This document shows, one piece after another, positions 12,001-45,291 of a stretch of DNA of 64,000 bases. Positions within the stretch are counted from its first letter, which is position 1. Each line of letters starts with the position of its first letter. Below the pieces are notes generated by a model, which worked only from the letters and a program-made list of their open reading frames with translations, did not search any database and was not told the DNA's origin. The DNA is taken from contig JAZDOS010000042.1 of assembly GCA_043798375.1 (NCBI GenBank), positions 5,037-69,036 of the forward strand, given 5' to 3'. The DNA is from Candidatus Omnitrophota bacterium. GTDB lineage: Bacteria; Omnitrophota; Gorgyraeia; 2-01-FULL-45-10. A program made the position numbers and the translations under genes.

Positions 12001-15000
12001 TTTCTAATCCTTTTGACGCGGTAAAAATGCAAAAATCAAGGGGATTGTTTGAATGGGATGATGCGGCTGGTGCTTGGGATTGGAAACAGGGCGATGGCAT
12101 AACGCTCTTACTCGGCCTGCCGTTCGAAGGGCCGATCCAGCAAAATATGGGTGAGATTGAGAACGCCTTGAGCAGTTTAGAGCCGGACGCGAAAAAGCTT
12201 TACCTGATGAAGATAGAAAATTTCCACCTTACCGCCGCCGCCCTTACAGAGAATACTCTTGAGGTTTCACAGGATCCCGCGGTGGAAAAAGAAATATTGC
12301 GCAGATTGTCCGCGGTCCGCAGCCTCATTCAGGGCCAGGGAGCGGTAAAACTTAAATTCCATTACAAAGATCTCACTATTACGCCGGGCGGCGAAATAGT
12401 GGCCCTCGGATTTGTGGAGAACGACAATTTATTCGCGATAAGAGACAAACTGCATTTCCGCGGCATATCCTCACATTATACCGACATCGTTCATATGACG
12501 ATAGGCAGGATATTCGATGAAAATATTTCGCCGGAAAGGCTTGCGGAATACAAAAGATTGATTGAAGCTCTGCGAGAGAAAAAAGACGAGCGCGGCAATC
12601 CCGCCGTTTTAGCCGATTTAACTATCGACAACGCTAATCTTTGGGATCAGCGCGGTGCAACGAGCGAACTCAGGTACGGCAGAAGCCATTCTCCGATCCC
12701 GCTCGAAGCAAGGCCCGAGATTCAGCCCAACGCGCCGCCGATAGTCGTTAAAACTGCTCCACAAGTTACCATAGAATCATTCACGAGCGAGCGCGGCCCG
12801 TCTACGGCAATGGCTGTGGCCAGATTAAAAGCCAGCGAAGTGACGGTCTATCCAGTATTTCAACGGAATATAAAATCAAGCCGCGGAATGCAGCGCGATA
12901 GGGCTACGATGCATTTCGGCTATCAATTGGAAGGCGGCAAATTTCAGGATGTGGATGACGAAGCGCCGGATTATGAGCACGTAAGGAAAGATATATGGAC
13001 AATAGAGGAGCATCTTGCTGAATTCAGGAAAAAGCATCCGGATGTTGAGATAATAGGTTTTGTAGGAAACGGTAATATACTCGCGAATACGGGCCTTTCT
13101 GCAAGTGTAATGTGGGTTGAGAGAAAGCTATGGGCAACAGAACAGGAAAAAGAGCTTATATATAACGGCAATAGCAGAAACTACCCATCGCTGATATTAT
13201 GGAAGGAGAACGGCCGTTACAGCGCGGAGGAAGTTAAATTTACGCGCGAGGGAAGGATTATTCAGGCGTCCACCGATAAAGATATAACCGAGGACGTTAT
13301 CTTTACGAATTCGGGCGTAGGATTATTGAAACAAGGTCCCGGCCGGGAAACCGCACCATATGATCTTGCCGCGCACTGCTGGCACGACTCTGATGTCAGG
13401 CATTATCTGGATTTCCCTTTCAGAAAAACGAATACCGGTAAATATATTCATTTTGGAGTAGATCAATTCTACGATAGCAAAGGAAATGTTGTGACGGCGC
13501 TTCTATCTCCCGCAATAGACGAAGAGCCGATTACTTTAAAATTAGAAGAGAATAAAATACCGCTGGACAATTACGATATAGTGGCGCTGGAAGCGGGCCT
13601 TAAAGAGAAAGGGTATGAGCCGGCCGCCTCAAGAGACGAGGTAGCATACGGAAGTTATTTTATCGCTCAGGATCTCGGCGAAATCAAAATAGGGTTTTTT
13701 AGAGGCATAAATCCTCATAATATCTGCGGCGTCGATTCCAAGGGAAATCTTATATGGGTTATCGTATCCGGTAAATCGAACAGGATAGGTATTACATTCA
13801 AGGAGGCCCAGAAGAAACTGAAAGAGATGGGGGCCGCGAGCGCCGTCATATTCGATAACGGTGCCGACGCGATGATGAACATAGATAATTCCTATGTCAT
13901 TCCGTCTTTCCAGGGCAGGGATAGGATTCTGTCGATATTGGTCTTCGGCAAGCGCGCCCCGCCTGACACCCGGCCGCAGGCGCCGGCGGAGGCGGACTTT
14001 GCGGCCGCGAAATTCGAAGACGTGACTTTAAAAGACGGCTCGAAGTTCAGTTTGGCGTACCTTCCATGGAGAGGCAAATACAAGGCCGCGGCCGCGCAGG
14101 TGCTTGAAAAAAGACCGGATAAGACGCGGCCGATTTCACCGTATGATCATGACAAGGCTATTTGTCCGCTTTGCAGTCCGATCATTGCCGATGAAAAGGC
14201 GTATAACGGCGAAGGCCGTCAATATATTATCGTCGTCAACACTTCGCCGTTTGCCGAAGATCATGCGCTTTTTGCGTCCAGAGAACCGCTGCCTCAAATT
14301 ATCACTACCCCAAAACAGATAGAAGACATAGCGGGATACATGTCTGAAAAGGGTGAAGGGCGCGAAGCGATATTCAACGGATTTGATCCGAACAGGACGA
14401 GCCTGGCGCATCGCCATTATCACTGGCAGGTATTTAAAAGATCGAGCACGATATGGGAGAATTACGCGAAAGGCGTGTTAAACACCCGATATTCCGAAGA
14501 GGAAAGCACGAAAACAGTTCGGGTTGAATATAGCGCTAATAAGGCGTTTTCGGTCAAGATTGTCATCGGCACAGACATAAAAAAGATCAGCGAGATTTTG
14601 CTTAAAGATATCCGCGTCATCGAATCGAAGTCTCTCATACCGATGATAAATTTTAGGATAATCGACGGGAAGTACGCGTTCGCGTTACAGGCCGGAACAG
14701 AAGAAAGGCCCGCCTCTCTTGTACGGCTGGATGAAGAAAGCCATGCCGGCATAGGGGCCGCGGAACACTCAGGCTATATCATAACGGACACGGAAAAACT
14801 GTTCGATACGTTAAAAGATAGCCCCGAGCTGATAAAAAATATTCTGATTGACAGCCAAGCGCCGATCGAAGAAGTTCTCGGCTCCGCCGACACAAACCCA
14901 CCGGCCTTGCCCGGGACAAGGGGCCTCGAGCCTGTCGAAGGGCCGGCGCAAGCCATAAAGCAATTCAATGACATGGCGTCGGGCATAATGGATCGCGGTT

Positions 15001-17108: not shown

Positions 17109-17118
17109 CGTTCTTAAT

Positions 17119-17265
17119 CTAACCTGGTTAATCTAACCAGGTTAGATTGCTTATCCTCGCCCTATATAAGGTAAGGCCAAGCTGCCTTATAATTGGCGAG
17201 GATAGGCTGCTTAACCATGTTCAACCTCGTAGGTTGAACCTACGAGGTTGAACATGGTTAGGTTA
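17119..17265 (+). terminator. Three consecutive strong hairpins after giant gene 1. The stems are 14 bp, about 9 bp nested, and a perfect 21 bp with a 5-nt loop
   Basis: aatctaacctggtt/aaccaggttagatt; atcctcgcc...ggcgaggat; aaccatgttcaacctcgtagg ttgaa cctacgaggttgaacatggtt. Confidence 0.5.
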
Positions 17266-17287
17266 TAAAAAAGTAAGAATTAATGGC

Positions 17288-17316
17288 TTGACAGTTTAAA
17301 TAAACAGAGCTATACT
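17288..17316 (+). promoter_or_regulatory. Consensus sigma70-type promoter for giant gene 2: TTGACA, 17-nt spacer, TATACT
   Basis: ttgaca at 17288-17293 and tatact at 17311-17316, which is 96 nt upstream of the ATG and aaggag RBS. Confidence 0.5.
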
Positions 17317-17354
17317 TTTATTACTTTAACAGCTCTTATTTGTTACATATATAA

Positions 17355-17386
17355 CCTCAAAGGTTGCCTTTAGGCAACCTTTGAGG
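17355..17386 (+). repeat. 5'-leader hairpin of the AGGTTGCC/GGCAACCT palindrome family, between the promoter and RBS of giant gene 2
   Basis: cctcaaaggttgcc ttta ggcaacctttgagg. The same core recurs at 48304-48341 and 57415-57542. Confidence 0.7.
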
Positions 17387-17411
17387 TTGGCAAATTGTAA
17401 GGAGATAAAAT

Positions 17412-20400
17412 ATGATATTCAGGAAAACAATTTCGGTTTTTGTAATCTTCACATTTCTGTTCTCGAACGTCGCTTTTGCCGTACCGGCTAAATCCAACAT
17501 TGAACTCGCAGGGAATAATGAGACGGTCACGACCCCCGAGAGCATAGTTGTACCGCGTGATTTCGGGCTTGTTAAGAGTAAATTTAACGGCAACTCCGGC
17601 AAACTTATAGTCCACATCCAGGACGCGCACTGTAATTATGAAGCCCAGTCTAATATCGTTAAAATATTGGAGGGATTGGTAAAGAATTACTCTTTTGGCC
17701 TGGTGGCGGTGGAAGGCGCCGACGGTTTCATCGACACTTCGTGGTTCAAGGCGTTCCCGGACGATGAGGTGAGAAAAGAGGTCGCCGATTATTTCATGAA
17801 GAAGGGCGAGATCACCGGCCCCGAATTTCTCTCCATCACCACAAACCTGCCGTTTAAACTATTCGGCGCCGAAACCCGCTCCTATTACATCCAGAACCTG
17901 AACGCGTTTACCTCAAGTTACCCATTAAAAGACGAAACCGAAAAATATTTCAACTCTATCAAAGCCGTTTTAAACCGTTTAAAAGGCTTTATATACAGCG
18001 AAGAGCTTAAGGTTCTCGATACAAAGATTCAGGATTACGAATCGAAGAAACTTCAGTTCAATGATTATATCAGATTCCTGCAGGCGATAGCCGAAAAACA
18101 TAAGATAAATTTAAGAAGCTACGATAATTTCTTCAGGCTCGTGAGCGTCCTCATATATGAAAAGAAGATAGATTTTAATATCACCGACAAGGAGAGAAGC
18201 GCGCTGATTGATGAATTAAGCAAGGCCGTCGCCAAAGACCAGCTTCAGCAGCTCGTAACGCAGTCCATATCATTCAAATCAGGTAAAATTTCATCCGCCG
18301 AATATTACGCGTATCTGAAGAACCTCGCCGCCGCGAACGGCATTGATCTTTCGAAGAAATACCCCAATCTTTATAACTATATAATATATAACGCCGTCTA
18401 CTCCAAAATAGAGAATGAAAAATTATTCCAGGATTTAAAGAAGATAGAGATCGCGGTCAAAGAGAAGCTCTTTGCCAACGATGACCAGAGAGCGCTCGAA
18501 AAACTCTCCCGCCACATCGACATACTTCTCGGCCTCATCAATATAAAGCTCATGAACGGCGATTTCGATTACTACCAGGCCGATAAGAGCGAGTTTACAT
18601 CGGAATATTTCGAGGATTTCATAAAGAAGAAGGTTATCCAGTTCGGCCTTGCCTATGATGTAATGGCGCCAACCGAGGCAGTCGCGCAAAGCATACCGAA
18701 ATTAGAGGATTTCTACTCAATAGCCATAAAGCGCGACAAGGCGCTCGTCGATAACACGCTCGACGCGATGAAGAAAGAGAAACAGAACATCGCGGTCCTT
18801 GTGACAGGCGGCTTCCACTCAGAAGGCATAGCCAAACTCCTCGAAAAGCAGGGCGTCTCCTACATGGTCGTCTGCCCGTCTATCACAAAAGACGTCCCCT
18901 CACCGTACATACAGATACTGACGAATCAACGCACCCCCCTTGAGGACATTCTTATCGGCACCGCCCACGCGAAGGAAGGGATGGTCGCCGCGCCTTCAAG
19001 AGCACAACTTATTACCATGCCGGACAGCGCATTCAAAGACTATGTCGGAAGACTTGAGGCCGGCGAAAAGCTTGCCCTGGCAATAAAGGCTGCAGAAGAA
19101 GAATGGGTGGACGTAACCGTGAGCGGCGCTGAAGGAGCCGCTACACCTGTCGGCAGAGTTAATATCGAAGGGCTCGTCGACCGCTTAAAGGAAGATACGG
19201 GGGCAAGCATTGCCGGTATAGTGAATGAGTTAAGGCACGACCTCCATCAGAGATGCGACAGATTACATTTATCGAAGATCTCAATCGAGCATCTTCTTGC
19301 TCTTCTCGAGGAAAAGCTGACATCGCCAGAGTTTAAAGCCATTACTGACAAATTCGAGGCCGAATACAACGAGCGCGTTGCAAACCGTGCGGCGCTGGAA
19401 GCGCGCCGTAAAGGCGCCGCGGAATCCGGCCGGAAAAGCCCGGGCAGGGACGCAGTAGCGGGAATCGGCGAGCGCGCTTTAAGGGCAGATGAGTTCGGCC
19501 GTTACGACAGCAATCTCGGAGCAAATTTTGAGGCAAGCAGGGTTGAGACAAGAGACGAGGAATTACCGGGCCTCAGGGTCCATGTCCACGGCGATATCAA
19601 CGGCAGTTTCGAGGAAGGAATAGCCGCGCAGAATGACGATGCCCTTCTGAACGGCGGGGCTACGATTCCATTTCCAAGAGTGCATCCCGGGACATACAGA
19701 GGCTCTGCTCTTTCGCGGGAAATCGATGGGCAGATCGAAGAGATCGCTGGGCAGATACATGTAAGCAGGTACATATGGGACAGCGAAAAGATCGCGGATG
19801 TTTCTGACAGTATCAAAATAACCAAAATGGATAAAGAGGTGGTAGGAAACCACGAAAAGGCCCATCTCGATATATTCGCAGGCAAGGGCGATATATTCAG
19901 GCTTTGGCTTCTCTATCTGGAGTACTGCGCGATATATAAGAAATTCGTAGACCAGGAAGACTTTGTAGATAATATTCAGAGCTGGGTAAGCCTTTTGACA
20001 AAATGGGCCAATAAAGGGACAAATGATAAAGGAGATATTGTTAAGGACGCCGAAAACAAGATGCCTATAAAGGAATGGGCGGTGATGAACGGTGTGCCGC
20101 TTGATGCTCGTCCCGGGGATTTCCCGAACTGCAATACCATCGAGATCCGGAAGAAGATAGCGGCATTACAGGCCTTGAGGATATACAAAAGGGCCAGATG
20201 GGCGCTGACCAATATAGACGAGAAAAAAATGAGGATAGCGCTTACCGAGGCCTATGTGCTGGCTGCGAATTACGGCGATGACGAACTGCTCAGTAATATC
20301 ATAAACCTGATCCCCGCACAACCTGGTATGAGGAAAGAGATATGCGGCAGGGCTATACTTCAGATAGCCAAGTGGTATCCGCTATGGATAAGGAAGGACC

Positions 20401-23400
20401 TTTTTAGGACAGCATCCCCGGGAACCATGGAACTTCTGGACCAGTGGCGTACGGAATCAGGCGCGGACCACGAGATAACGCCTAAAGATGTTGTCGCGGT
20501 CATCATGGCCGGCGGCGGCGGAGAAAGGATGTGGCCGCTCAGCGTTACGGAAGACCCCAAACAGATAACCGATATCATTGACGAGAAACTCCTTGTCATG
20601 GCCGTCCGCAGGGTGATAGAGCATCTGGGAAGGAAGAATGTCTACATCCAGACCATCCCAAAGCTTAAAGATAAGATCGTAAAATTGTTAAAGGATGCCG
20701 GTCTGAATATCCCGAAAGAAAATATATTCGCCGAGCCGGAATCTGCGGACACATCAGGCGCGATAGGCTATGCAGCCGCAAAGTTAAAGAGGTTGGGCAG
20801 AGGCAATGACGTGATGTTCGCATGTACCGCCGACCATTATATAGATGTAACCTCACCCGATTTCAGGAGCGCCTATATGCACGCGGCTAAGATAGCCAAG
20901 CACAATCAGGCGATAGGTACGTTGGGCATCGATCCCGAGCCAATAGGCGTATCGGAAGAATACGGCTGTATAAGGAAAGGCGGAGAGACCTTTTATGAAG
21001 GAGGCCATGTAGCCGCTAAGTTCATCGAAAAACCGAAAGGGAAAGACGCGAAAGATATATTCAAGGAAAGACTCCCTGATAATAGCCACGTATGGCTTTA
21101 TAATAGCGGGATGTTCATAGGAAGACCCGATATATTTTTAGAGGCGTTCAGGCAAGTCGCTCCTGTCTACGGCGAGGCGTTCGATGCCATAGCGGACCCG
21201 GAGGCTACGCTGGAGACGGAGGCGAAGGCCTTCAAGCAGTTAGGTGAGAATAAAAAGAAGGGTGGGTTTATTCATTCCGGAGAACCGACAGGATTCCGCA
21301 AGGGCGTATCGGTGGATTATGTATTAGCCCAGCCCGTCTCGAAGATGGAAACCGACAGGATCGCGCTATTTATGGTTGCGGGCACATTCAAATGGAAAGA
21401 TATAGGCAGTTATGCGATGGCCTATGCATATTATAAAGATGATTATCTCGGAACGCCTGACAAAGGAGACGCATCCGCAAAAACAGGTGTCTATAAAGAC
21501 GCAGATAATAATATCGTTGTGAACAAATCCTCCGACATAACACCGGCGCCCTATGTTAATTTTGAAAGCTGCTCAGAATGTTTTGTCATTGCCAATGATC
21601 CTGATGCGAGGATAACGCTTAAGAATCTCACAAGAACGATAGTAATCTATAACCCGACTACAAAATCGGTTATGGTGGCGCCTATTAGCGTAGAAGGCGA
21701 TTCTATAAAGAAGCTTCAGGGCAGGATAGGGGCGAGGGCCGCCTTAAAAGGTTATGTATTGGGCAATTTATCAGGGATTGAGCCGTCAAAAAAGAGAGCG
21801 GTGATTAGGGGCAGGTATGATGATAAGACAAGCTCAATTGTCATGGAAGAAGCTGACCAGAAGAATAATGTTGTCGAAGAGTATCTGCAGGGCAACGGCA
21901 TAATCATCGGATCCGAAGGATGCAGTATATCTGTAGGTGTTGGGCTCGCCACAATTGTTGATATGAAAGACGTCTCTCTGGACGTGCGACAGTCAACCGC
22001 TGACGGCATAAATATATCAGTGGAGAAGAAAGGCCCTGCCGCGGCATCGGCAGGTACGGCAGTTTCCGCGGGGATCACACTCGCGCATCTAGAGACACCT
22101 GCGGAGCGGATAGGGAACACAAGGATGATGCTTGAGCGGCTGGATATAAATCACATTACGCCCGCCGCATATGCCGGCGTTTACGGCGTGAGCGAGGATA
22201 TCGCGAAAACGGAGATAGGTAAGATATACGAAGAAGATATCGATAGAATAATAAAGATCGCGGCAGGCATCTCCAGGCTTAAAATCGATAGGAGCGACCC
22301 CGCTAAAATAGCCCATTTGGACGGCGAGATCGAAAAGCTGCAGAAGACGGTAAAAGATATCGTGCTCGAGAGAAAGAGCCGCGGCACGCTCGTTCCAGGA
22401 TGGATAAGGCTTGTCGTAGAAGGCATAAAAGACAGGGCGGAGTACAAGGAATCTTCACGGGTCAGGAGCGAAACGGTCCGGCTGTGCAATACCGTCTTTG
22501 CCGAATCAAAGGAAAACGAAATATTACAAGATGCCGCCAGGACAGAGAAGGAGCGCATCTTAAAAGATAAAGAGCTTATTACCTTGAGTCCGGCCATATG
22601 CAGGCGCGATTCAGTCAGGGCAGAAGACGCCGAACTTGAATTATCGGATACCATAGCCAATATATTGGGCAAGTCTATGGTGATGCTTATGCTGAAACAG
22701 ACAAAATTGACCGATCCGTCTAAACTAAAAATGGTCGTGGGCAGAGAATCGCGGATCACTGGTCGGCGCATATTATCCGCTTATAAGAGAGGCCTCCTTG
22801 ATATGGGCGCCAATGTTTTGGACATCTCCAAGACGGAGATCGATACCCTTGAAGGAAGGCAGGTAAGCGAGGTGGTAAGTACGCCTCTCATCTATTTTGC
22901 CAATCAGCTTCTCAACCCGTCCTCTGCTACCGAGATAACCGCAAGCCACCTACCTAAAGCCGCAAACGGTATTAAACCGACCATCATGAAAAGGAACGTT
23001 ACAGCGGATGAGATGAAGGTGTGGGAAGAACTGACCCATGATATTATTGACGGGAAGATCAAACCGTCCGGAAACAAGGGAGCCGAGACGAGCGATGCAT
23101 CGGTCTTGGGTTATTACCATTTGATGCTCAGCGCTACCCTGGCCGAAATAATAAATGATGAATCAAATGCCGCAGGACAGGCCCTCGTGAATAAGTGGCG
23201 CCTGGGGAGAAACGATGTCCTTAATAATGGGAAGACTTTAAAACAAGCGCTTGATGATATAAAGAACGAGGTCGCGGCATATATGGGAAGTAATCCTCTG
23301 TGCGGCATGAAGATGGAAATAGACCCCGGCAACGGCTCCATGGGGCCGATAGCGATTCCCTTACTGATAGGCCTTGGAGCAGAAATCCCGGCCGCGCCGA

Positions 23401-26400
23401 CGCACATACCGGACGGAATATTTGAAGGACTGGGAAGGCATGACTCAAACCCAAATATCCCGGATAACCTGCGTATCCTCATACGGAGAGTCTTCGATAA
23501 CAAGGCAAGTATGGGGGAGGCCTTTGACGCCGACGGCGACAGGCTCGGCGTTATTTCAAGCGAAGGCGACTATCTGCAGGGCGACGATATAGCGTGCCTT
23601 ATAGCTCCCGTACTTATAAAGATGAGAAAGGAATTGACCGGCAAAGAACCGGTCGTTATCGTCAATAATCTCTGCAGTGATCAGCTGAAACAAGTTATCA
23701 GGGAGGCGGGCGGTAGGGCGGTTGAATGCAATGTAGGTTTCACTAATGTAAAAGCGAAGATGACCGAGTTAAGAGATCAGGGTAATGAAGCGATCATGGG
23801 CGTGGAGCTTTCCTCACACATTATGATGGATATGAATTTCGACTCGGATGACGCGTTTTTCGCATCGATTGTGCTTATAGGCATATTGAAACAGAAGGCC
23901 CGCGAGCTTAGCGTGACACCGCAGGAGGTAATGGGGCTCATGCGGAAGGAATTAAATGCCAGATATTTTAAGGTAAATCCCATAGGAGAGGGCCGCGTAT
24001 TGATGTTAACAGACGATACGCGCAAAGAGGCGGCCGCGAAAGCAGTGGAAGAATGCAAGAGGAGGATCGGCGATCCAGAGTATCAGTATATATACGAGAA
24101 GAATCCTGATAGGGAGACGGAAGACCTGGAACGGGAAGGCGGGATCAAGATAGATGTAAAAGAGAGAGAGACCGGCGAGCTTATGGGTTGGTTTGTTATA
24201 AGGCCGTCCGGTACCTCGGCGGAGATAGTCGTCACCGCGGAGTCGGTAGTCGGCGTCCATGCCGAATCGGAGGCAAATGCCATTATGAACGCCCATAAGA
24301 TCAAACAGGAGGTGATAGACCTTCTCCGTCCTTATGAGAGATGGGTTAAGGTTGACGAGATACAGCCCTCGGACTTTGGCGCTGTCTTCAAAGCAAGGCT
24401 CGAAGGCAAGGATGTCTCTGAAGTTAGAGCTGTCGAGAGAGCTGATATCTTCAGAAAATCAGTCGGCATGCTGGCTGTGGGGCAGGCAGATGAAACGCCG
24501 CTTACGCCCGGCGCGGATGAAATAATCGCGTCGATTATGGAAGAGGTTGTGGTGCCCGAAGGCATAAGCGAAGCGAGGAACGCGGCGGCGGGAGAGCGAT
24601 TGATGCAGGAAATAAAGGGTAGCCTTCCCGGCGAGCATACGGATAGGATCGCCTCCATATATAATGAAGTGGTAGCGAGGGTTAAAGCGGCGCGTCTCGG
24701 GACCCGCATAGCCGCTCAGGAAACGACCGCGCAGTTTCTCGCAACTCAGGAAGTGAGGGACGTTACGGTTAATGGGGAAACAGGCGCCCTTATTGTGCCG
24801 TCATCCAGCGATTACAAGGACAGGGGCCAGCACGATTCTACTTACATGAAACTAAGGGGCCTGGCCGCGAATGCCTTGGTTAGCGCGCGGAAATTGTTCG
24901 CGCGGCACCAGTATGAGACGGTTTATTCCATGAACCACGGCGCTCTTCCGATCCCGGAGACGTTGAGGCAATTGGCGTCTTATAACAACGTAAGCCCGGA
25001 AAATTACAGGATTCACGATACATTCTTCCCGCAGGTGAATCCGCTGTTCCCGGGAAGCATACAGTACCAGGTTACGGGCGCCCATTACCAGGCGAATGTC
25101 TTTGACATAAAGTATGTTACCGAGGGTAAAGGCCTGCAGTATCTTGTAAAGGTTGACAGGAAGGCGTTTGAGGAGACCGGCAAGGTCGTCGTGGTCGATA
25201 CGATCGTGCAGGAGATGGCGCCCGGCAAATGGGTATACGCCCTGCCCGGCTATATAGATATAGTGGTGAATAAAGGGGCATTGAGATTTAATGATGTTTC
25301 CTATGAATTGAGCCCGCAGGAACTGGAAAAACTCGAAAACGAGACCGGCTTTAAAATAGATATGGATACGAATTTCTATGAGAAACTGCCGGCGAAAGGG
25401 ATGGCGCATCTATTCTACATGTATAACGGCGAGACGCGTGTTGCGCTCAACCCCGAAGTTATGCCCGAAGGTAACCTCAATATAAGGGTAATGTCAGCTG
25501 GCCTTCCGACGATGGCCGAAAAAGAACTTAAAGTAGGCCTCATGGAGATTTACGCGGCCAATCCAGGCATAGTTCAGTCCATGATGTCGCTTCGATATCT
25601 TGAGACAGTTAATGAGAAGATGCCGTTTGCGCCTGCCATGATACAGGCAATTCATCCGAAAGAAACCATCGTGCCGGAATCGATCGATGTCTTGAATAGC
25701 AGCGCTCAAGAAGCGGCCTTATTCTTTGAGGCATTAGAACAAGAGATCGGGCAAGGGAATCCTATAGAATTCTTACCCAATGTGAGATGCGGCAGGAAGA
25801 ACAATCAGACTTGGGGCGTGCCTGTCAGCGTGTCGATGATACTCGAAGGGCTGGGGGCTCGAACTCGGCAGGAAAAAGAGGCGCTTGTCGATAGGCTTAA
25901 GATTGATATCGATGATGTGGTGAGCGAGCTCTGGATAGGCGCGGACATGGAGCATCCGTCAATGGTAAATGTAAAGACAAAGTATTCAGCGCCTGTATAT
26001 GTGCTATTCGGTAATTATCCCGAAGAAACTTTCGGCAAGGATCATTTAGACGCATTCGGCCGGGATTTCGGCTTGTTGATAAAACACCTCAATTCGGCCA
26101 GATACTTATCCGCCCAGAACCATGTATTTACCGAAGGGGTAATACCTTTAAATAAAGAATCGGTTGCGGTGATGGGATTCGCGAGAGATATAGGGCCCCA
26201 GGAATTGGAAGAAGAATTGATCCGGGGAAAAGAAGAATCGCTTAATAGGGTTGTTCTTATGGAGGGAAAACCCTATCTTGTTCCCAAAGGCATGATGCAT
26301 GCCTATGGGCCTGTCAATGTCCTTGAGATAAAGGAACAGAGCCTTGGAAAACCTGATACGGGTATGACCAATTCCATATATGATAGGTTAAGCGTGCCGG

Positions 26401-27605
26401 CAGGACAGAAGACGCCTCCGGCCGAATGGCCAACGATGAGACAGAATAATCCGGCGGAACTTGCAAAGGCTGTTGGCATCGATTCCAGGAGGACCGGAAA
26501 AGACGTATTGACCATGGCCCGCGAGGCATGGCAGAGGGCATTAAACGTTATGGCCGAGAACAATATGCTGAAGGAGGCAAAACCTCAAGATTATGAATCG
26601 CCGGTTATAAACTTACGTCCCCAAGCGATAGGCGGTAAACTGGAAGGCATGATGTTAGAGCCGGGCTTTGTCGTTGAGAGGTTTGAGATCCATGCAGGCC
26701 AGACGATGTTAGCTGAGGAGCTCACGTTCGGCAGGGCGAGCATAATCATGGTGCAGGAAGGCGCGGTGGATTTGACAACAGAAAAAGATGTGCCGATAAC
26801 GACATTGAAAGCCAAAACAGAAGATAGGTACAGGCTTAATCTATCTGCATATCCGTCTTATAAGATTACAGCCGCTCAGGGCCGGAAGGCTATCGTTGAT
26901 GTGATGTATAAACCTCTTCCGGCCGAGGCGCTCGTCAACACGGGCTTTGAGGCAATTCGCGCCAATCTTCCCGCTGTGCGAAGCCAGAAAGTTCATTTGC
27001 TCACGACTTCAAAAGCGTTCCGAAGGGGTGACGTGCGTGACCGCGAACCCGGCTCGTTCAGATATGAAAAGGAGATTTTAAACCGCGTATCCGACGGCAG
27101 GGTGGAATTATCGGAAGTCATAAGCTGTGACGCGGGCGAATTGAAAGAGGCCCTGCAGGGTTTGATGAAGGGCGAAGAAGGCGTCAATTACGTCGTCCAA
27201 CTTACCGAGGGCGAATTTAATTCGATCAAAGACGATAAGGACATAGCGAGGCTTTTGAAAGATACGAGGCTCATGGTTCTTCCCAATGTCAAGCTTGGCG
27301 AAAACCGCGGCATACCGTTCATCAGAGAGATTGAATCGGCCGGTGTAATACTCGGTAATACAAAACCGGAGGATATCCGGGATAAGACGGCTATAGCCGG
27401 ATGGTTGAAGACCGTAATGTCGAAGTTGACCGGCAACAAAGCGATCGACTGGGAGATGCTCGCGACGCTATTGAAGTCGCCGGACCCGGCGATGTCATTC
27501 GCCGACAGGATAAGTATTCTGCTCAAGAACCTGCAGGTCAGGATCCAGCCGCACAAGGCCGATGAAGGCGTGCGTGAAAGGCGGCAGCTCTTGTGGAGCG
27601 TGTAA
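17412..27605 (+). CDS. Giant secreted multidomain protein (3397 aa) with an N-terminal signal peptide, an embedded ManC-like mannose-1-phosphate guanylyltransferase domain, an embedded ManB/PGM-like phosphohexomutase domain, and large novel regions
   Basis: aaggag RBS 8 nt upstream of the ATG. Signal peptide MIFRKTISVFVIFTFLFSNVAFA. Uninterrupted 10.2 kb ORF. Confidence 0.85.
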   Translation: MIFRKTISVFVIFTFLFSNVAFAVPAKSNIELAGNNETVTTPESIVVPRDFGLVKSKFNGNSGKLIVHIQDAHCNYEAQSNIVKILEGLVKNYSFGLVAVEGADGFIDTSWFKAFPDDEVRKEVADYFMKKGEITGPEFLSITTNLPFKLFGAETRSYYIQNLNAFTSSYPLKDETEKYFNSIKAVLNRLKGFIYSEELKVLDTKIQDYESKKLQFNDYIRFLQAIAEKHKINLRSYDNFFRLVSVLIYEKKIDFNITDKERSALIDELSKAVAKDQLQQLVTQSISFKSGKISSAEYYAYLKNLAAANGIDLSKKYPNLYNYIIYNAVYSKIENEKLFQDLKKIEIAVKEKLFANDDQRALEKLSRHIDILLGLINIKLMNGDFDYYQADKSEFTSEYFEDFIKKKVIQFGLAYDVMAPTEAVAQSIPKLEDFYSIAIKRDKALVDNTLDAMKKEKQNIAVLVTGGFHSEGIAKLLEKQGVSYMVVCPSITKDVPSPYIQILTNQRTPLEDILIGTAHAKEGMVAAPSRAQLITMPDSAFKDYVGRLEAGEKLALAIKAAEEEWVDVTVSGAEGAATPVGRVNIEGLVDRLKEDTGASIAGIVNELRHDLHQRCDRLHLSKISIEHLLALLEEKLTSPEFKAITDKFEAEYNERVANRAALEARRKGAAESGRKSPGRDAVAGIGERALRADEFGRYDSNLGANFEASRVETRDEELPGLRVHVHGDINGSFEEGIAAQNDDALLNGGATIPFPRVHPGTYRGSALSREIDGQIEEIAGQIHVSRYIWDSEKIADVSDSIKITKMDKEVVGNHEKAHLDIFAGKGDIFRLWLLYLEYCAIYKKFVDQEDFVDNIQSWVSLLTKWANKGTNDKGDIVKDAENKMPIKEWAVMNGVPLDARPGDFPNCNTIEIRKKIAALQALRIYKRARWALTNIDEKKMRIALTEAYVLAANYGDDELLSNIINLIPAQPGMRKEICGRAILQIAKWYPLWIRKDLFRTASPGTMELLDQWRTESGADHEITPKDVVAVIMAGGGGERMWPLSVTEDPKQITDIIDEKLLVMAVRRVIEHLGRKNVYIQTIPKLKDKIVKLLKDAGLNIPKENIFAEPESADTSGAIGYAAAKLKRLGRGNDVMFACTADHYIDVTSPDFRSAYMHAAKIAKHNQAIGTLGIDPEPIGVSEEYGCIRKGGETFYEGGHVAAKFIEKPKGKDAKDIFKERLPDNSHVWLYNSGMFIGRPDIFLEAFRQVAPVYGEAFDAIADPEATLETEAKAFKQLGENKKKGGFIHSGEPTGFRKGVSVDYVLAQPVSKMETDRIALFMVAGTFKWKDIGSYAMAYAYYKDDYLGTPDKGDASAKTGVYKDADNNIVVNKSSDITPAPYVNFESCSECFVIANDPDARITLKNLTRTIVIYNPTTKSVMVAPISVEGDSIKKLQGRIGARAALKGYVLGNLSGIEPSKKRAVIRGRYDDKTSSIVMEEADQKNNVVEEYLQGNGIIIGSEGCSISVGVGLATIVDMKDVSLDVRQSTADGINISVEKKGPAAASAGTAVSAGITLAHLETPAERIGNTRMMLERLDINHITPAAYAGVYGVSEDIAKTEIGKIYEEDIDRIIKIAAGISRLKIDRSDPAKIAHLDGEIEKLQKTVKDIVLERKSRGTLVPGWIRLVVEGIKDRAEYKESSRVRSETVRLCNTVFAESKENEILQDAARTEKERILKDKELITLSPAICRRDSVRAEDAELELSDTIANILGKSMVMLMLKQTKLTDPSKLKMVVGRESRITGRRILSAYKRGLLDMGANVLDISKTEIDTLEGRQVSEVVSTPLIYFANQLLNPSSATEITASHLPKAANGIKPTIMKRNVTADEMKVWEELTHDIIDGKIKPSGNKGAETSDASVLGYYHLMLSATLAEIINDESNAAGQALVNKWRLGRNDVLNNGKTLKQALDDIKNEVAAYMGSNPLCGMKMEIDPGNGSMGPIAIPLLIGLGAEIPAAPTHIPDGIFEGLGRHDSNPNIPDNLRILIRRVFDNKASMGEAFDADGDRLGVISSEGDYLQGDDIACLIAPVLIKMRKELTGKEPVVIVNNLCSDQLKQVIREAGGRAVECNVGFTNVKAKMTELRDQGNEAIMGVELSSHIMMDMNFDSDDAFFASIVLIGILKQKARELSVTPQEVMGLMRKELNARYFKVNPIGEGRVLMLTDDTRKEAAAKAVEECKRRIGDPEYQYIYEKNPDRETEDLEREGGIKIDVKERETGELMGWFVIRPSGTSAEIVVTAESVVGVHAESEANAIMNAHKIKQEVIDLLRPYERWVKVDEIQPSDFGAVFKARLEGKDVSEVRAVERADIFRKSVGMLAVGQADETPLTPGADEIIASIMEEVVVPEGISEARNAAAGERLMQEIKGSLPGEHTDRIASIYNEVVARVKAARLGTRIAAQETTAQFLATQEVRDVTVNGETGALIVPSSSDYKDRGQHDSTYMKLRGLAANALVSARKLFARHQYETVYSMNHGALPIPETLRQLASYNNVSPENYRIHDTFFPQVNPLFPGSIQYQVTGAHYQANVFDIKYVTEGKGLQYLVKVDRKAFEETGKVVVVDTIVQEMAPGKWVYALPGYIDIVVNKGALRFNDVSYELSPQELEKLENETGFKIDMDTNFYEKLPAKGMAHLFYMYNGETRVALNPEVMPEGNLNIRVMSAGLPTMAEKELKVGLMEIYAANPGIVQSMMSLRYLETVNEKMPFAPAMIQAIHPKETIVPESIDVLNSSAQEAALFFEALEQEIGQGNPIEFLPNVRCGRKNNQTWGVPVSVSMILEGLGARTRQEKEALVDRLKIDIDDVVSELWIGADMEHPSMVNVKTKYSAPVYVLFGNYPEETFGKDHLDAFGRDFGLLIKHLNSARYLSAQNHVFTEGVIPLNKESVAVMGFARDIGPQELEEELIRGKEESLNRVVLMEGKPYLVPKGMMHAYGPVNVLEIKEQSLGKPDTGMTNSIYDRLSVPAGQKTPPAEWPTMRQNNPAELAKAVGIDSRRTGKDVLTMAREAWQRALNVMAENNMLKEAKPQDYESPVINLRPQAIGGKLEGMMLEPGFVVERFEIHAGQTMLAEELTFGRASIIMVQEGAVDLTTEKDVPITTLKAKTEDRYRLNLSAYPSYKITAAQGRKAIVDVMYKPLPAEALVNTGFEAIRANLPAVRSQKVHLLTTSKAFRRGDVRDREPGSFRYEKEILNRVSDGRVELSEVISCDAGELKEALQGLMKGEEGVNYVVQLTEGEFNSIKDDKDIARLLKDTRLMVLPNVKLGENRGIPFIREIESAGVILGNTKPEDIRDKTAIAGWLKTVMSKLTGNKAIDWEMLATLLKSPDPAMSFADRISILLKNLQVRIQPHKADEGVRERRQLLWSV
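20480..21440 (+). other. Mannose-1-phosphate guanylyltransferase (ManC/GMP-like NTP-transferase) domain inside giant protein 2
   Basis: AVIMAGGGGERMWPLS (GGxGxRLWPLS), EPESADTSGAIGYAAA, TADHYIDV, TLGIDPEPIGVSEEYGCIRKG, KFIEKPKGKDAKDIF...WLYNSGMFI, WKDIGSYAMAY. Confidence 0.7.
22630..24300 (+). other. alpha-D-phosphohexomutase (phosphomannomutase/phosphoglucomutase-like) domain inside giant protein 2
   Basis: Active-site serine loop ITASHLPKAANGIK (TASHNP-like), Mg loop FDADGDRLGV, sugar loop GVELSSH, phosphate loop IRPSGTSAEIVV (RPSGTEP-like). Confidence 0.65.
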
Positions 27606-27611: not shown

Positions 27612-28135
27612 TTAAACGGTTGCGGTTGCGCGGCTCGCCACGGTTTTCGTTTATCGTAAAACGTTATGGAAGAAAAGAAAACCATCAGAAGTTTTCATGA
27701 TTTGGAAGTTTATCAAATTGCATATCAAGCGATGCTTGACGCATTTAAACATATTTTGCCCAAACTGCCTTCAGAGGAGAAATACGACTTGGTTGATCAG
27801 CTCAGACGTTCGACCAAAGCCATTCCTCGCTTGATAGCAGAAGGGCATTCTAAAAGACATCAGAAAAAAGGCTTTCAAAAATACCTAGATGATGCAATGG
27901 CAGAATCTAACGAAACAATTGTTTCATTGACCCAGGCGAAAGATTTATATTCTTCAGTGATTGATATAAAGATATGCGAAAGTCTAATAGATAATTACGA
28001 TAAGATAAGCAGGCAGTGTTATAAGTTGGGAATTGCTTGGGATAGATTCGGCGATCGTAAATTAATCGACGCAACCGATAGACGATAGACGAAACGAGCA
28101 GCGCAACCGATAGACGAAAGACGTAACCCGATAGG
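27612..28135. mobile_element. Full-length copy of an inverted-repeat element that carries a four-helix-bundle ORF. It is the parent-like member of a 6-copy family; five ORF-less ~100-bp copies lie elsewhere in the window
   Basis: Left arm cggttgcggttgcgcggctcg (27616-27636) is the reverse complement of right arm acgagcagcgcaaccgatag (28094-28113). The AT-rich cargo ORF lies between GC-richer flanks. The short copies keep both arms and the 'gttatg' start context but lack the ORF. Confidence 0.6.
27666..28088 (+). CDS. Four-helix-bundle protein (TIGR02436 / 23S rRNA intervening-sequence protein family, PF05635-like)
   Basis: FHDLEVYQIAYQAMLDAFKHILPKLPSEEKYDLVDQLRRSTKAIPRLIAEGHSKR matches the family hallmark ..FeDLevWqkA..l...iY.lt..fPkeEkygLtsQlrRAavSIpsNIAEG..R. 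Confidence 0.75.
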   Translation: MEEKKTIRSFHDLEVYQIAYQAMLDAFKHILPKLPSEEKYDLVDQLRRSTKAIPRLIAEGHSKRHQKKGFQKYLDDAMAESNETIVSLTQAKDLYSSVIDIKICESLIDNYDKISRQCYKLGIAWDRFGDRKLIDATDRR

Positions 28136-28144: not shown

Positions 28145-31100
28145 TTGAATAATATTATGCGGAAATACAGAATTATCATCAACACCCTGGCCTGGCTTGT
28201 CATAATAAGCCAGGCCTTTACGCTAAGCCCCGTGTATGCCGACTCGCTCGCCACTCCCAAATTAACCCATCCCGACGCCAATCAGGCCAGAGCCATATCC
28301 AACCTTGCTGAGTTCGAGGTATGCTACGGTGAAAGGCTTTTATATAAGGGTGAAAAGCTTTCGTCCGTTAATTCCGTTTTAAAAAATAGATTTCTGGACA
28401 GGAAAAAAGTTTATTTGAATGAACCGTCTATCCTGGTGCGGGAGAATCTAAAACTCGGTCAAGTTGAATTTATAAGCTACGACAGAGAGAAACAGGCGGG
28501 CGTCTTTAGGTTTAAAGGCAAACCGGACAATTTATATACGGTAGCGCTTATTCCCAGGCAGGGCAAGTACTCGATAACCCTTCATAAGAATTCCTCCGGC
28601 TCGGCATCTCAAAGCCTTGCAAAAACAACTGATAGTCAGGATGAACCCCTCACCGGACACGGGTTCAGCGTGGAGGATGTCAACAAAGTCAAGCTTACGG
28701 CATGGAGCGAATCCGGCGCTTTCAGGAAGGTCATGGATGAGCTCGAAGATATTTTAAAAGCCCGCGCGCCGGATAATCTGAAAGAACTGCTTTTTTATAC
28801 CCTGTCGGCATTTAAAGAAGGCCGTGACGGCCGGCAGCTCGGTTACACGCCCGCCCGCTACAAAGACCCGGCTCATTATTATCTCGGTTTCGGGACATCG
28901 AGATCGATATGCCTCGCCTCCGAATTCCTGGATGAAGAAAGCCCGTTATCGAAATTTGCCGCCGAAGAGCTGTTTCACGAGTTACTGCACGCGGCAATGG
29001 ATATTTCCAAAGACGATTCTTACATCGAGAGCGAGACGGCCAATCATATAACGTCGCTCAGATTGGCCGCGCAATTTTTCTGGGGATTGCCGGAAGAAGA
29101 AGCGCTCTCCCTCTCCCCGAATATGCTCGAGCACCATTCCAGGAACAGCCTCGGCGACGCGATAAGGCTGTGGAAGACGGAACAGCAGGATATACGCGAC
29201 GCCGTCCTCAACAATAAACCGCTTGAATTGAAAAAGATGTTAGTCGACGCGTTAAAGAGAATCGGCAATAATCCGTCGAAACTCTTCGATATTCTCGCCG
29301 TCTGCGATGCCGCGTCGGACGAGATGAAAAGGCATCCGATACAGAGCCGCTATCCTCTGCTTATGGCGGTAACCTTACTGAATAGGAAGCAGAAACTGCA
29401 GCTTGTTAAAGCGGTTAAACAGGGCGGCGATGCTATCGCGGATCTTAAAATAGCGGATTCCGTTCTCCTTATGCTGGAGAAGAAGGTGCGGCCCGATTGG
29501 TTGGGGCACCAGGCGCCCAATCTAAAAGGAAGAACCGTATGGCAGGTTGCCTCGGAGATATGGAATCCCGGCGGAGGGTTAGGGCGCGTAATGCAGTTTG
29601 AGGCCTTTTCTTTCCGCGACATGTTAGGCCAATGCGCGGGCGATGTCCGTCTGAGAACCATAGAACCCCATTACGCGTACGGAAAAGACGGAGTGCCCCT
29701 GGATTACGATAAGATACTCGGCGCTTACGAGGGCAAAGAAGAAAATAGGCTGAAAGAAGTGGATACTTTCGAAGTAACGGTTGGTGACGAGACAGCAATC
29801 GCGGTATGTTCACGCGCCCTCAATCAGCATGGGATCGAAAGTTATATAATTAAGCTCCTCAAGAGGGGCGCAGACGGCAGCCTCTCCCCATATTATACGG
29901 AGGGCATGTATCTTTATCGCGGCGCTGAAGCGCCCGCCGCTGTTCCGATAGAAGATTTTTCCGCGTTCTTCTCTGCCGCCTCGCTTGAGCTTGTCGCGAG
30001 AATTGAGGCAGGGGAAAAAAAGGCTTCCGAGGAAGCCTCATCCTTCTGGAACTATCCGGTCGTATATTTTAATGACGGCCAGCTCGGGCTCGCTCCGTTA
30101 TTCCGCCGGGCGTTCGAACATTTTTCCAATAACCCGATTCTCAAGGAAGCATTAGTCGCTTACAAGACTCACACCTATCCGAACCGGGTCTTTTTCGATG
30201 TGCGCGAGAAGAACGGGGATGAGGGGTATGGCATAAAAGTCCTGAAGCGCTTCGGGATACCGGAAAAATACTGGGAGTATTTTACCCATGTTATCGGTGA
30301 AGAACTGAGCCAGGAGACGAGAGAAGTAGCCGATTTTACATCGGCGGGCCTGCGCTCGGCGGACTGGCAGGCAGGCGTAAGCGCCAAGCAGGCCGACGAC
30401 GTATCGATGTATGACGACTGGGGAAAGTGGAAAGATTTCTTCGAGCTTGTAGCCATAACAAACGGAGATTACCTGCCGATCACCGAATCCCGTTTTGCCG
30501 AGGCCGCCAGGGAAGCGCTCGCGGCCGCCGACATCGAAAGCCTGACCCCCATGCAGGTCTTTGTGGCGAACAGGCGCGCGAAAGAAAACCTGAACGCCTT
30601 TTTGATCAAGCGGCTCGGCGATAAGTATATTTTCGGGATAAGCCCGGACAAACCCGTTCTTTCATATTCCGGAAGGGGTGTTGACGAAAAAGCCGGAAGG
30701 AACAGGGCCCTGTCAAACAGCAACATCATAACTCTGGTGAAGATGGGCGTCCAGGTGGTGATAGGTTTTAATGTCCAGAGCGAGAAACATAACAGGGACG
30801 AGCTGGATAAACTTGCCGAAGAATTGCGCGAGGCAAAAAGCAAAGATCCGGACGGTTACCCCGGCAATTTTATATTTGTCCCCGACAGCGACATAGAAAT
30901 TCAGAGGCTTATCCTTGCCGCTTCAGACGCTCAGGTCCAGGATTCGGATCCGAGGACGGAGGCCGCCGGTTATACGGAATCGAATATAAAAAGGTGCGCC
31001 GGGTTGCAGATAGCGCCGCCCTGGCCCGAGGGAATACTGCAGGCAGGCATCCCCTTTAATTTTAATAAACTCGGAGAAGGGGCTACCATTATTCCGGAAA

Positions 31101-35162: not shown

Positions 35163-35170
35163 CCTGCCAA

Positions 35171-35187
35171 TTCTAACCAGGTTAGAA
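35171..35187. repeat. CTAACCAGGTTAG-family palindrome overlapping the stop codon of the oxidoreductase, followed by a ggttagaatatg direct repeat (x2)
   Basis: ttctaacc a ggttagaa. The same core is at 17125-17152 and 55095-55197. Confidence 0.7.
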
Positions 35188-35359
35188 TATGGGGGGTTAG
35201 AATATGATGAAGAACTGTTAAGCAATGCCGAAGAAATAGCGAAAATGTTATCGGGTCTGATTAATTCTTTACAAAGATAACTTTGTTTGGTATTATTTTT
35301 TCTTTAACCTATAAGCTTTGAACTATTAGCTATAAACTAAACGCGTAACGGAGAATAGT

Positions 35360-45288: not shown

Positions 45289-45291
45289 CCT

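Follow-up and report, generated by a model that had tools for sequence, protein, structure and literature searches.

The stretch of DNA analysed here, referred to as the window, comprises 64,000 nucleotides of a Candidatus Omnitrophota bacterium (assembly GCA_043798375.1, contig JAZDOS010000042.1, positions 5,037 to 69,036 of the forward strand). One of its genes, called ORF2 (open reading frame 2) in the following, encodes a three-enzyme pathway cassette in a protein which belongs to a very large family of modular proteins with signal peptides, a family restricted to the phylum. The cargo of the ORF2 protein comprises the three enzymes by which fructose-6-phosphate is connected to GDP-mannose, arranged along the chain as mannose-1-phosphate guanylyltransferase (ManC), phosphomannomutase (ManB), a cupin, and phosphomannose isomerase (PMI, ManA). 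An earlier reading of the DNA letters, the original prediction, had recognized two of the three enzymes of the GDP-mannose pathway but missed the third one, which occupies residues 2791-3166 outside the coordinates it had reported, and it also missed the architecture of the family.

ORF2 is a single uninterrupted frame of 3397 amino acids, and its product is 100% identical to P0001, an NCBI protein of a Candidatus Omnitrophota metagenome-assembled genome (MAG). The parts of the gene, with the basis of each assignment, are the following:

17412..27605, plus strand: the whole giant gene, from the open reading frame call; a modular multi-enzyme protein for which export is predicted
17412..17480, plus strand: signal peptide, residues 1-23, MIFRKTISVFVIFTFLFSNVAFA; the sole N-terminal hydrophobic segment; cleavage by signal peptidase I is predicted behind A-F-A
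17529..18986, plus strand: N-terminal module (N-module), residues ~40-525, with the fold of the TIKI/TraB/EreA/ChaN superfamily in a predicted structure; putative catalytic set D71-x-H73, E101, H469
19677..19871, plus strand: HPG...H...HExxH block (R756-VHPGTY ... N813-HEKAH-LD) within residues 690-1010; motif in homologues
20493..21530, plus strand: ManC guanylyltransferase catalytic (NTP-transferase) domain, residues 1028-1373; Pfam, TIGR01479, structure 2x5s, identity among orthologues
21531..22091, plus strand: probable left-handed beta-helix C-terminal domain of the guanylyltransferase, residues ~1374-1560; stand-alone relatives, BLASTP
22626..24287, plus strand: ManB, a four-domain alpha-D-phosphohexomutase of the phosphomannomutase/phosphoglucomutase (PMM/PGM) type, residues 1739-2292; Pfam, alignment to AlgC, motif conservation
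24792..25781, plus strand: beta-rich cupin-like domain 'cupA', residues ~2461-2790, with the motif TGAHYQ at 2555-2560
25782..26909, plus strand: ManA-like type I PMI, residues 2791-3166; fold and ligand residues
26910..27602, plus strand: C-terminal module (C-module) type A, residues 3167-3397, alpha/beta, with the conserved tail RRQLLWSV-COOH; predicted local distance difference test (pLDDT) 80-90

Enzymes of the GDP-mannose pathway

The presence of ManC and ManB domains in one signal-peptide-bearing protein of 3397 residues, as originally proposed for nucleotides 20480-24300, was borne out by matches to Pfam, NCBIfam, and the sequences of the PDB, which map to nucleotides 20493..24287. For ManC, the Pfam family NTP_transferase (PF00483) matched residues 1029-1334 with an E value of 5e-19 (69 bits against a cut-off of 21). 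The NCBIfam model GMP_PMI (TIGR01479) matched residues 1028-1373 with an E value of 9e-29, at a score of 100 bits which is far below its equivalog cut-off of 373. The nearest solved structure by sequence is the mannose-1-phosphate guanylyltransferase of Thermotoga maritima (2x5s, E 1.6e-20). The nucleotide loop of this enzyme, GGSGERFWPLS, has its counterpart in GGGGERMWPLS at residues 1034-1044 of ORF2, and the further motifs TADH (1139-1142, with D1141), FIEKP (1204-1208, with E1206 and K1207), and NSGMF could be aligned to it as well. Of the kinds of catalytic residue which had been named for checking in NTP-transferases, an aspartate and a lysine are retained in these motifs, D1141 in ADH and K1207 in FIEKP. 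Together with the ~190 residues behind it, ManC shows 44-51% identity in five orthologues, the N-modules of which show 47-70%, so that ManC is under a constraint comparable to that on the most conserved part of the protein. The identity of the domain as a mannose-1-phosphate guanylyltransferase is supported by these comparisons; a specificity for GTP and mannose-1-phosphate is putative.

The spacer between ManC and ManB, described originally as some 400 residues of unknown sequence, actually measures 365 residues, and about half of it, the first ~190, is probably the beta-helix domain of the guanylyltransferase, because stand-alone guanylyltransferases carry the domain PF22640 behind the transferase. 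The nearest stand-alone relatives of ManC are guanylyltransferases of 350-365 amino acids with ~30% identity, one of which (P0222) is from an Omnitrophota MAG. In these proteins PF22640 follows PF00483, and up to 76-78% of residues 1020-1560 of ORF2 are covered. The BLASTP alignment to P0222 reaches only the start of the beta-helix region, and a weak beta-helix match was found, too.

ManB was recognized by the Pfam domains PGM_PMM_I (residues 1739-1855), II (1965-2052), and III (2057-2169), all of which exceed their gathering cut-offs, as does NTP_transferase, so that the motif matches which the prediction had relied on are not spurious. Domain IV of the same series (residues 2257-2292) scores 18.1 bits against a cut-off of 23.1, yet it is placed correctly and its phosphate loop is present. 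The nearest solved structure by sequence is the PMM/PGM AlgC of Pseudomonas aeruginosa (1k35, 4mrq; E 1.6e-23). Three of the loops could be aligned to AlgC: the phosphoserine loop TASHLP (1843), the metal loop FDADGDR (2038; D2039/D2041/D2043), and the sugar loop GVELSSH (2130; E2132/S2134). The phosphate loop IRPSGTS at 2263 (R2264/S2266/T2268) is past the end of this alignment as printed and was recognized from the sequence itself. The phosphoserine sought in ManB is present as S1845; AlgC has TGSHNP at this place, and in the subgroup of ORF2 the asparagine following the histidine is replaced by leucine. As regards a preference of ManB for mannose, glucose, or glucosamine phosphates, its best NCBIfam matches were divided among archaeal GlmM (E 1e-33), PgmG, and PMM/PGM, all far below cut-off. 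The claim that the catalytic loops of both ManC and ManB are intact is thus upheld by the alignments to 2x5s and AlgC, and the catalytic motifs are conserved among the orthologous giants.

The third enzyme became apparent from two weak matches, NCBIfam manA (TIGR00218; E 7.6e-4, 18.7 bits against a cut-off of 116) and Pfam PMI_typeI_cat (PF20511; E 0.004, below cut-off), in view of which the structure of residues 2300-3397 was predicted with 14 homologues (pLDDT 78, predicted template modelling score 0.74). When this model was searched with Foldseek, the top matches were the type I PMIs of B. subtilis, A. fulgidus, C. albicans, and Salmonella, with E values down to 4e-14 and target template modelling scores of 0.61-0.74. 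The catalytic cupin, the helical domain, and the second cupin of the type I PMI fold are all found in the predicted model. Equivalents of the zinc ligands, Q2902, H2904, E2908, and H2963, together with the motifs YxWG and ELW, are conserved in 11 of 11 aligned homologues, the equivalence having been judged from the motif context (LSxQxH, HAY). On the level of sequence the PMI domain showed no significant family match; a phmmer search of the PDB with residues 2751-3397 gave no meaningful match, and a Pfam scan of the C-terminal third in 15 homologues yielded only two MPI_cupin_dom matches and one Cupin_2 match. The assignment to ManA is suggested by the modelled fold and the ligand residues. 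The preceding cupin-like domain cupA may be related to cupin-type phosphoglucose isomerase (PGI).

Since the catalytic residues are kept and ManC is as conserved as the N-module, the three domains ManA, ManB, and ManC are, judging from sequence, most likely active enzymes and not relics.

Conserved ends and exchangeable cargo

The N-terminus of ORF2 has a basic n-region, a hydrophobic core of 11 residues, and the A-F-A cleavage-type motif, behind which the mature protein would start with VP. The signal peptide was called by heuristic inspection. None of the other hydrophobic segments in the 3397 residues qualifies as a transmembrane helix. The same signal layout was found in 178 of 184 homologues with a complete N-terminus, the leaders of which have a median of 3 lysines or arginines and 0 aspartates or glutamates ahead of the core and typically end with (A/S)-F-A. 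Of the original description as a secreted protein, the signal peptide stands as canonical, whereas secretion is a prediction from the sequence, according to which the ORF2 protein would be exported via Sec and its leader cleaved.

Residues 1-1009 had no match in Pfam, NCBIfam, or the PDB sequences, including the families TraB (PF01963), Erythro_esteras, and Cofac_haem_bdg. As the PDB sequence searches remained empty, a structure prediction was needed for the N-module. The model was built with 20 homologues and is confident over residues ~40-507. Its core shows the alpha/beta TIKI fold and is split by a helical insertion of ~300 residues. The fold matches, each with its structure entry and match score, were:

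HopBA1, 5t09, 9.5
Bacillus 'succinoglycan biosynthesis' protein, 2rad, 9.3
TraB protein, 8bqs_DQ, 9.0
Bacillus 'succinoglycan biosynthesis' protein, 2qgm, 8.6
EreC, 6xcq, 8.6
ChaN, 2g5g, 8.5
MARTX effector RRSP, 5w6l, 8.1

The residues D71-x-H73, E101, and H469, the latter contained in the motif GGFH, are invariant in 21 of 21 sequences. Active members of the superfamily use a set of two histidines and two glutamates, which in RRSP are E3900-x-H3902, E3930, and H4030 (PMC6254334). With the positions matched by motif, E101 of the N-module is found 28 residues past the histidine, the same spacing as in RRSP. The N-module resembles the TIKI/TraB/PrgY/erythromycin esterase/ChaN superfamily in its parallel beta-sheet flanked by helices and, as far as matching by motif goes, may also do so in having an acid-x-H motif, a glutamate, and a histidine at the catalytic positions. 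It differs in that the first acidic residue is aspartate instead of glutamate, in the long insertion, and in the absence of a sequence match to a Pfam family of the superfamily. It is probably an active hydrolase. Further downstream, the HPG...HExxH block (residues 756-818) recurs in ~20 homologues which reach residue ~820-855, and by phmmer in 9. It had no match in Pfam or the PDB and, as far as the motif goes, may be a small zinc-peptidase-like domain.

The family defined by the N-module is very large. A profile of the module retrieved 9161 clusters at 50% identity from a library of 1.8 billion proteins, 5401 of them at E <= 1e-30, and 348 loci in the GTDB species genomes, several of which contain two or more copies. 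The record titles of the best 80 of these 348 loci are mostly Omnitrophota, with 24 'uncultured Planctomycetia', one Actinomycetes, and one 'Candidatus Makaraimicrobium'. Examples titled otherwise than Omnitrophota are L079 (JAJCYG010000042.1, Actinomycetes) and L002, L010, and L014 (Planctomycetia). As these are 41-73% identical to Omnitrophota sequences, the Planctomycetia and Actinomycetes records are suspected to be mis-binned or mislabelled Omnitrophota contigs; the title 'Candidatus Makaraimicrobium' is suspected to be incorrect, too.

The plan of the family is as follows: a signal peptide and a TIKI-fold N-module of ~500 residues are followed by a variable cargo of sugar-phosphate or nucleotide-sugar enzymes and by one of two C-modules. 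In the 119 homologues of the first search, which are 1900-5600 amino acids long, residues 2-525 of ORF2 are common to all from the signal peptide on, with 36-87% identity. According to precomputed Pfam matches their cargo consists nearly entirely of cytosolic-type enzymes of sugar-phosphate and nucleotide-sugar metabolism. These include PGM/PMM (in most members), NTP-transferase, UDP-glucose pyrophosphorylase (UDPGP), phosphofructokinase (PFK), two types of PGI, phosphoglycerate kinase (PGK), transaldolase, class II fructose bisphosphatase (FBPase), CofD-like proteins, ROK kinases, phosphoribulokinase/uridine kinase (PRK), and an epimerase. Outside this range there are only a few entries, namely HAD, methyltransferase, Cupin_2, and uncharacterised families; no carbohydrate-binding module (CBM), dockerin, or Ig domain occurs in the Pfam content of these 119 proteins.

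The distribution of the C-modules was worked out by offline searches on 206 retrieved N-module proteins. Type A (tail ...LWSV), with which ORF2 ends, was found in 77 and type B (tail ...VESL) in 78 of them, almost always as the very last part of the chain. Members with neither type may have been cut short where their contigs end. For type A no structural or family match was identified. A search of a 5.8-billion-protein collection with residues 3081-3397 returned 0 proteins, with the query protein itself likewise not listed, and the search for stand-alone ManC relatives with residues 1020-1560 also listed neither the giants nor the query protein.

How the cargo varies is best seen in the closest relative, protein P0003 of the syntenic locus L001, where the same three giants as in the window occur in the same order. 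The N-module of P0003 is 87% and its C-module 66% identical to that of ORF2, but the PMI only 29%, and no counterpart of ManC and ManB was detectable. Exchange of cargo between kept ends is the grammar of the family.

In principle, such sharp differences in cargo among close relatives could also be produced by mis-joins, and the sequence is metagenome-assembled. An assembly chimera or an annotation artefact which joins unrelated genes is nevertheless hardly credible as the origin of the long frame. ORF2 stays open over 10.2 kb without a stop, and the same domain order is seen in independent assemblies from different sources (P0002, P0013, P0011, and P0089). P0002 is 50% identical to ORF2 over residues 3-1624, and P0013, which also has a PMI, 39% over residues 5-1595. 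The order N-module, HExxH, ManC ... PMI recurs in at least three distant members, P0013, P0011, and P0089, all with PGM_PMM matches in Pfam. In addition, the N- and C-modules are located at true termini in 77 plus 78 proteins, and locus L001 is syntenic for all three giants.

Neighbouring genes and site of action

On the plus strand of the window three very long genes stand in series, ORF2 being the middle one, and they are followed by genes for sugar utilisation:

99..17108, plus strand: ORF1, the upstream giant, 5669 amino acids, with ~12 hydrophobic helices between residues 1100 and 3170
28145..34066, plus strand: ORF3, the downstream giant, 1973 amino acids, with a signal peptide of its own and a different N-terminal region
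34134-57392: mannan and cellodextrin utilisation cluster

The N-module of ORF2 was sought by BLASTP in ORF1 and ORF3 and not found in either. The first 2800 residues of ORF1 gave no matches; the protein contains embedded domains of the HAD-IIB (Cof-type) phosphatase, MbnB/MNIO-like TIM-barrel, and NAGPA phosphodiester-glycosidase kinds as well as weak HD domains. Its last ~300 residues are a C-terminus of a third kind which recurs directly upstream of N-module genes at ~14 loci, so that the giants form conserved tandem arrays. ORF3 has in common with the ORF2 family only the C-module type B (tail ...LVVESL). It carries a divergent PFK domain at residues 1088-1429 with an NCBIfam score of 72 bits, the cut-off being 253, and the NCBIfam scores do not separate the ATP from the pyrophosphate (PPi) type.

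The utilisation cluster contains two GFO/IDH/MocA oxidoreductases, a xylose-isomerase-like TIM barrel, a GH130 mannoside phosphorylase, an MFS_2 transporter, a stand-alone PGM/PMM of 558 amino acids located 13 kb downstream of ORF2, ABC permeases, two GH113 mannanases, two CBM27-like proteins, a GH94 phosphorylase, a GT2 protein, a ROK protein, a solute-binding lipoprotein, and a two-component system. Signal peptides are present on the mannanases, the CBM27 proteins, and the solute-binding lipoprotein and absent from the GH130 and GH94 phosphorylases, the ROK kinase, and the stand-alone PMM. No PMI gene was found in the cluster.

The signal peptide and the cofactor needs of the cargo may be reconciled by assuming an exported enzyme array which works at a nucleotide-containing, host-facing site, a reading to which we assign, tentatively, a probability of about 0.45. 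According to it the ORF2 protein would be translocated by Sec and its signal peptide removed, and the TIKI-type N-module, possibly together with the HExxH block, would act as a peptidase or esterase module in processing or anchoring the chain. The ManC-ManB-ManA array would then be a co-localised unit outside the cytoplasm of the producer. Since ManC needs GTP or PPi, and the cargo of the family includes PFK, PGK, ROK kinases, and UDP-glucose pyrophosphorylase, the site of action would have to supply nucleotides or PPi. The interface with an attached host or prey cell, or the contents of such a cell, would be the most plausible site, where the array might interconvert hexose phosphates and nucleotide sugars of the host to the benefit of a bacterium with a reduced genome.

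Several points weigh against this assumption. GTP, ATP, and UTP are not expected in the bacterial periplasm or in the medium. Export, cleavage, processing, and activity are all predicted, and on sequence alone domain IV of PGM_PMM as well as the PMI domain miss their Pfam cut-offs. In the window neither a secretion system nor a pilus locus nor an importer of sugar phosphates was found, and within 10 kb to either side of 80 related loci no secretion system, pilus genes, or phosphosugar transporter recurred; the only recurrent neighbours there were other giants, ABC sugar permeases (6-7 loci), and an HD-domain protein (6 loci). Furthermore, ORF2 adjoins a mannan catabolic cluster of cytoplasmic type, with GH130, GH94, and a stand-alone PMM all devoid of signal peptides. 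As this cluster has no PMI of its own, an ordinary cytoplasmic role of the PMI of the giant would fit, and cytoplasmic ManB and ManA together with the PFK of ORF3 would complete the catabolism of mannose-1-phosphate.

A more far-reaching form of the export idea is a modular enzyme-delivery system, in which signal peptide, TIKI N-module, and C-terminal cap would carry swappable cassettes of upper glycolysis and nucleotide-sugar metabolism into an attached host, reaching either its cytoplasm or its lysate. The cassettes would draw on ATP, GTP, and sugars of the host, and the parasite would import the intermediates. Upper glycolysis and nucleotide-sugar metabolism would thus be outsourced, ORF2 being the cassette for GDP-mannose and mannose phosphates. 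This would complement the glycolysis of Omnitrophota genomes, which is reported to be complete in its lower and patchy in its upper part (2026 preprint, 10.64898/2026.06.07.730766). As a whole, we consider this scenario quite unlikely.

Alternatively, the protein might be located in the producer itself: an uncleaved N-terminal segment might anchor a metabolon to the inner membrane, with the bulk of the protein in the cytoplasm working on the cell's own sugar phosphates. Mannose-1-phosphate from phosphorolysis by GH130 might then be converted to fructose-6-phosphate for glycolysis with the PFK of ORF3, or GDP-mannose be made for envelope glycans. The cargo enzymes are without exception of cytosolic type and depend on GTP, ATP, UTP, or NAD, the phosphorylases, ROK kinase, and PMM of the adjacent cluster are without signal peptides and the cluster without PMI, and the next giant carries a PFK. 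In 176 of 176 genomes pfkA was seen only at relaxed thresholds, with PGI and hexokinase in a minority (10.64898/2026.06.07.730766), which would fit divergent giant-embedded copies doing the work, compare the 72 versus 253 bits of the ORF3 PFK. In spite of this the metabolon is doubtful, as the leader has the full set of features of cleaved Sec signals (basic n-region, core of ~11-14 residues, polar c-region, small-x-small motif) and no traits of an N-out anchor in 178 of 184 members. A stand-alone cytoplasmic PMM and a stand-alone Omnitrophota guanylyltransferase (P0222) exist, so that the copies in the giants are not the sole ones, and a DeepTMHMM survey arrived at the same outside topology for signal-peptide-bearing giants (10.64898/2026.06.07.730766).

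If the protein is exported, the need for nucleotides might also be avoided by processing in the periplasm or at the surface, with mutase and isomerases at work, ManC running in reverse on scavenged GDP-mannose with PPi, and the products being imported. PMM/PGM and PMI require only metal ions and a bisphosphate activator. The signal peptide without a further anchor would suit such a process, as would the signal peptides on the GH113 mannanases, the CBM27 proteins, and the solute-binding lipoprotein of the window. We regard it as unlikely: the PFK, PGK, and ROK kinases in the cargo of sister proteins are unable to run without ATP or ADP, the phosphorylases which would supply sugar-1-phosphates are cytoplasmic here, and the window did not yield a sugar-phosphate transporter, its MFS_2 and ABC systems being of oligosaccharide type. 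Finally, the enzyme folds might have been recruited into a surface protein as modules for sugar binding or adhesion, without catalysis. Omnitrophota giants have indeed been proposed as adhesins (PMC10066038), and all three domains are divergent and score far under the curated equivalog cut-offs, for instance 100 versus 373 bits for TIGR01479. This is very improbable, as every catalytic residue checked is retained and conserved across orthologues which are ~50% identical, and as three domains forming one complete pathway would be pointless for binding modules.

With regard to the intergenic sequences, an AGGAG ribosome-binding site at 17400-17404 precedes the ATG of ORF2 by 7 nucleotides, and one promoter-like site is located further upstream:

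17288..17316, plus strand: promoter-like site TTGACA-17 nt-TATACT, with 11 of 12 consensus matches; a consensus match only

Between this site and the start of ORF2 a palindromic leader with a hairpin is found. Promoters and terminators inside ORF2 were not more numerous than in shuffled sequence, and RNA genes were not found in the window, neither an Rfam family nor a tRNA. The gap of 300 nucleotides ahead of ORF2 (17109-17411) is filled with long perfect palindromes such as TAACCTGGTTAATCTAACCAGGTTA and CATGTTCAACCTCGTAGGTTGAACCTACGAGGTTGAACATG, and related TAACCAGGTTA palindromes occur in the gaps 35158-35189 and 55094-55200; terminators, REP-like elements, or regulatory sites are possible roles.

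A dispersed intergenic stem-loop element of ~115 nucleotides with the ends AAACGGTTGCGGTTGCGCGGCTCG and CGAGCAGCGCAACCGATAGACG has four compact copies (45166-45298, 45967-46099, 52564-52678, and 57822-57936). In a further copy between two of the giants (27614-28135) the ends are split and enclose an open reading frame of 140 amino acids (27666..28088). This frame belongs to the '23S rRNA intervening sequence protein' family (PF05635, E 1e-18), which is also the Pfam family of the Avd proteins of diversity-generating retroelements. Such a retroelement was considered here and rejected because neither a reverse transcriptase nor a template/variable repeat pair was found. A-rich periodic repeats of 7 and 14 nucleotides (AAAGTAA / GTAAAGA) are located in the intergenic regions 36371-36500, 43490-43570, and 50048-50165, where they form inverted pairs between sugar-utilisation genes. 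The segment 59955-62796 near the right end of the window encodes two polyamine-related proteins, an arginase-family protein and a pyruvoyl-dependent arginine decarboxylase, as well as a protein with a HypF/Kae1-like carbamoyltransferase domain, which are unrelated to the findings on ORF2.

Comparison with known systems

Omnitrophota are uncultivated, ultra-small, and probably host-dependent bacteria, the giant proteins of which are unexplained. The placement of GDP-mannose enzymes in a giant protein with a signal peptide, which had been called unusual, is so for bacteria in general but routine within Omnitrophota, where it has been remarked on in two preprints. The general phenomenon of sugar-metabolism enzymes in signal-peptide-bearing giants of the phylum is already on record there: larger Omnitrophota giants contain PGM/PMM, PGI, FBPase, triosephosphate isomerase, and aldolase domains in regions predicted to be extracellular (2023 preprint, 10.1101/2023.11.21.568195). 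The signal-peptide-only family of 2-5.6 thousand amino acids, the TIKI N-module, the two C-terminal caps, the cassette exchange, and the complete ManC-ManB-ManA triad were not found described in the literature searched.

With the multi-enzyme giants and Archaeovorins of these preprints (10.1101/2023.11.21.568195; 10.64898/2026.06.07.730766) the ORF2 protein shares the phylum, the signal peptide and/or membrane association, PGM/PMM, PGI, FBPase, and ROK domains predicted to face outward, and a peptidase-type module beside the N-terminal signal. In much larger giants of the phylum C39 or S8 peptidases stand beside the signal peptides, for which self-processing has been proposed (West-Roberts et al., 10.1101/2023.11.21.568195), and the layout of ORF2 looks analogous, with a different peptidase-type fold. 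The surveyed giants and Archaeovorins, however, have sizes from 10,000 or from 30,000 amino acids upwards, mostly many transmembrane helices, HEAT/TPR scaffolds, and C39/S8 peptidases, whereas members of the ORF2 family have 1900-5600 amino acids, a signal peptide only, a TIKI-fold N-module, two alternative C-modules, and a cargo which, judged from 120 proteins, is nearly all devoted to sugar phosphates and nucleotide sugars.

The paradox of an export signal on enzymes which need nucleotides is the same as in the two preprints, and ORF2 offers no overlooked helix by which it could be explained away. What ORF2 adds is a compact example of 3.4 thousand amino acids, free of transmembrane helices and with three assayable enzymes of one pathway, and what its family adds is a defined grammar of TIKI-fold N-module, swappable cargo, and two C-terminal caps. 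With thousands of family members the question of location and activity has become directly testable. Should the enzymes act outside the producer, cells would be seen to interact metabolically in a new way. Should they be cytoplasmic, the topology calls made from signal peptides for the giants of the phylum would be systematically misleading, and metabolic reconstructions of Omnitrophota would need revision.

Fused steps of GDP-mannose synthesis are also a feature of the type II PMI-GMP enzymes (AlgA/ManC class, TIGR01479), and residues 1028-1373 of ORF2 correspond to positions 2-307 of the 467 positions of this model. To our knowledge, fusions of GDP-mannose enzymes are known only as such small cytoplasmic PMI-GMP proteins, with a different type of isomerase. 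They are ~470 amino acids long, cytoplasmic, and have a small type II cupin isomerase straight after the transferase. In ORF2 the match ends before the isomerase part, a type I PMI follows ~1400 residues downstream, a phosphomannomutase lies between the two, and a signal peptide is present.

It is in the logic of their design alone that the proteins of the ORF2 family resemble the MARTX toxins, which comprise thousands of residues with conserved ends and a swappable array of enzymes, and which undergo processing by a protease of their own. MARTX toxins are exported by type I secretion with a C-terminal signal and possess glycine-rich repeats, cytotoxic effectors, and a domain with cysteine protease activity. 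In ORF2 no MARTX-defining domain was found by Pfam, and an N-terminal Sec signal is present instead. In ORF2 the TIKI module is a conserved end and not part of the cargo, the cargo consists of enzymes of central metabolism, and outside the TIKI fold no homology between the two systems was detected.

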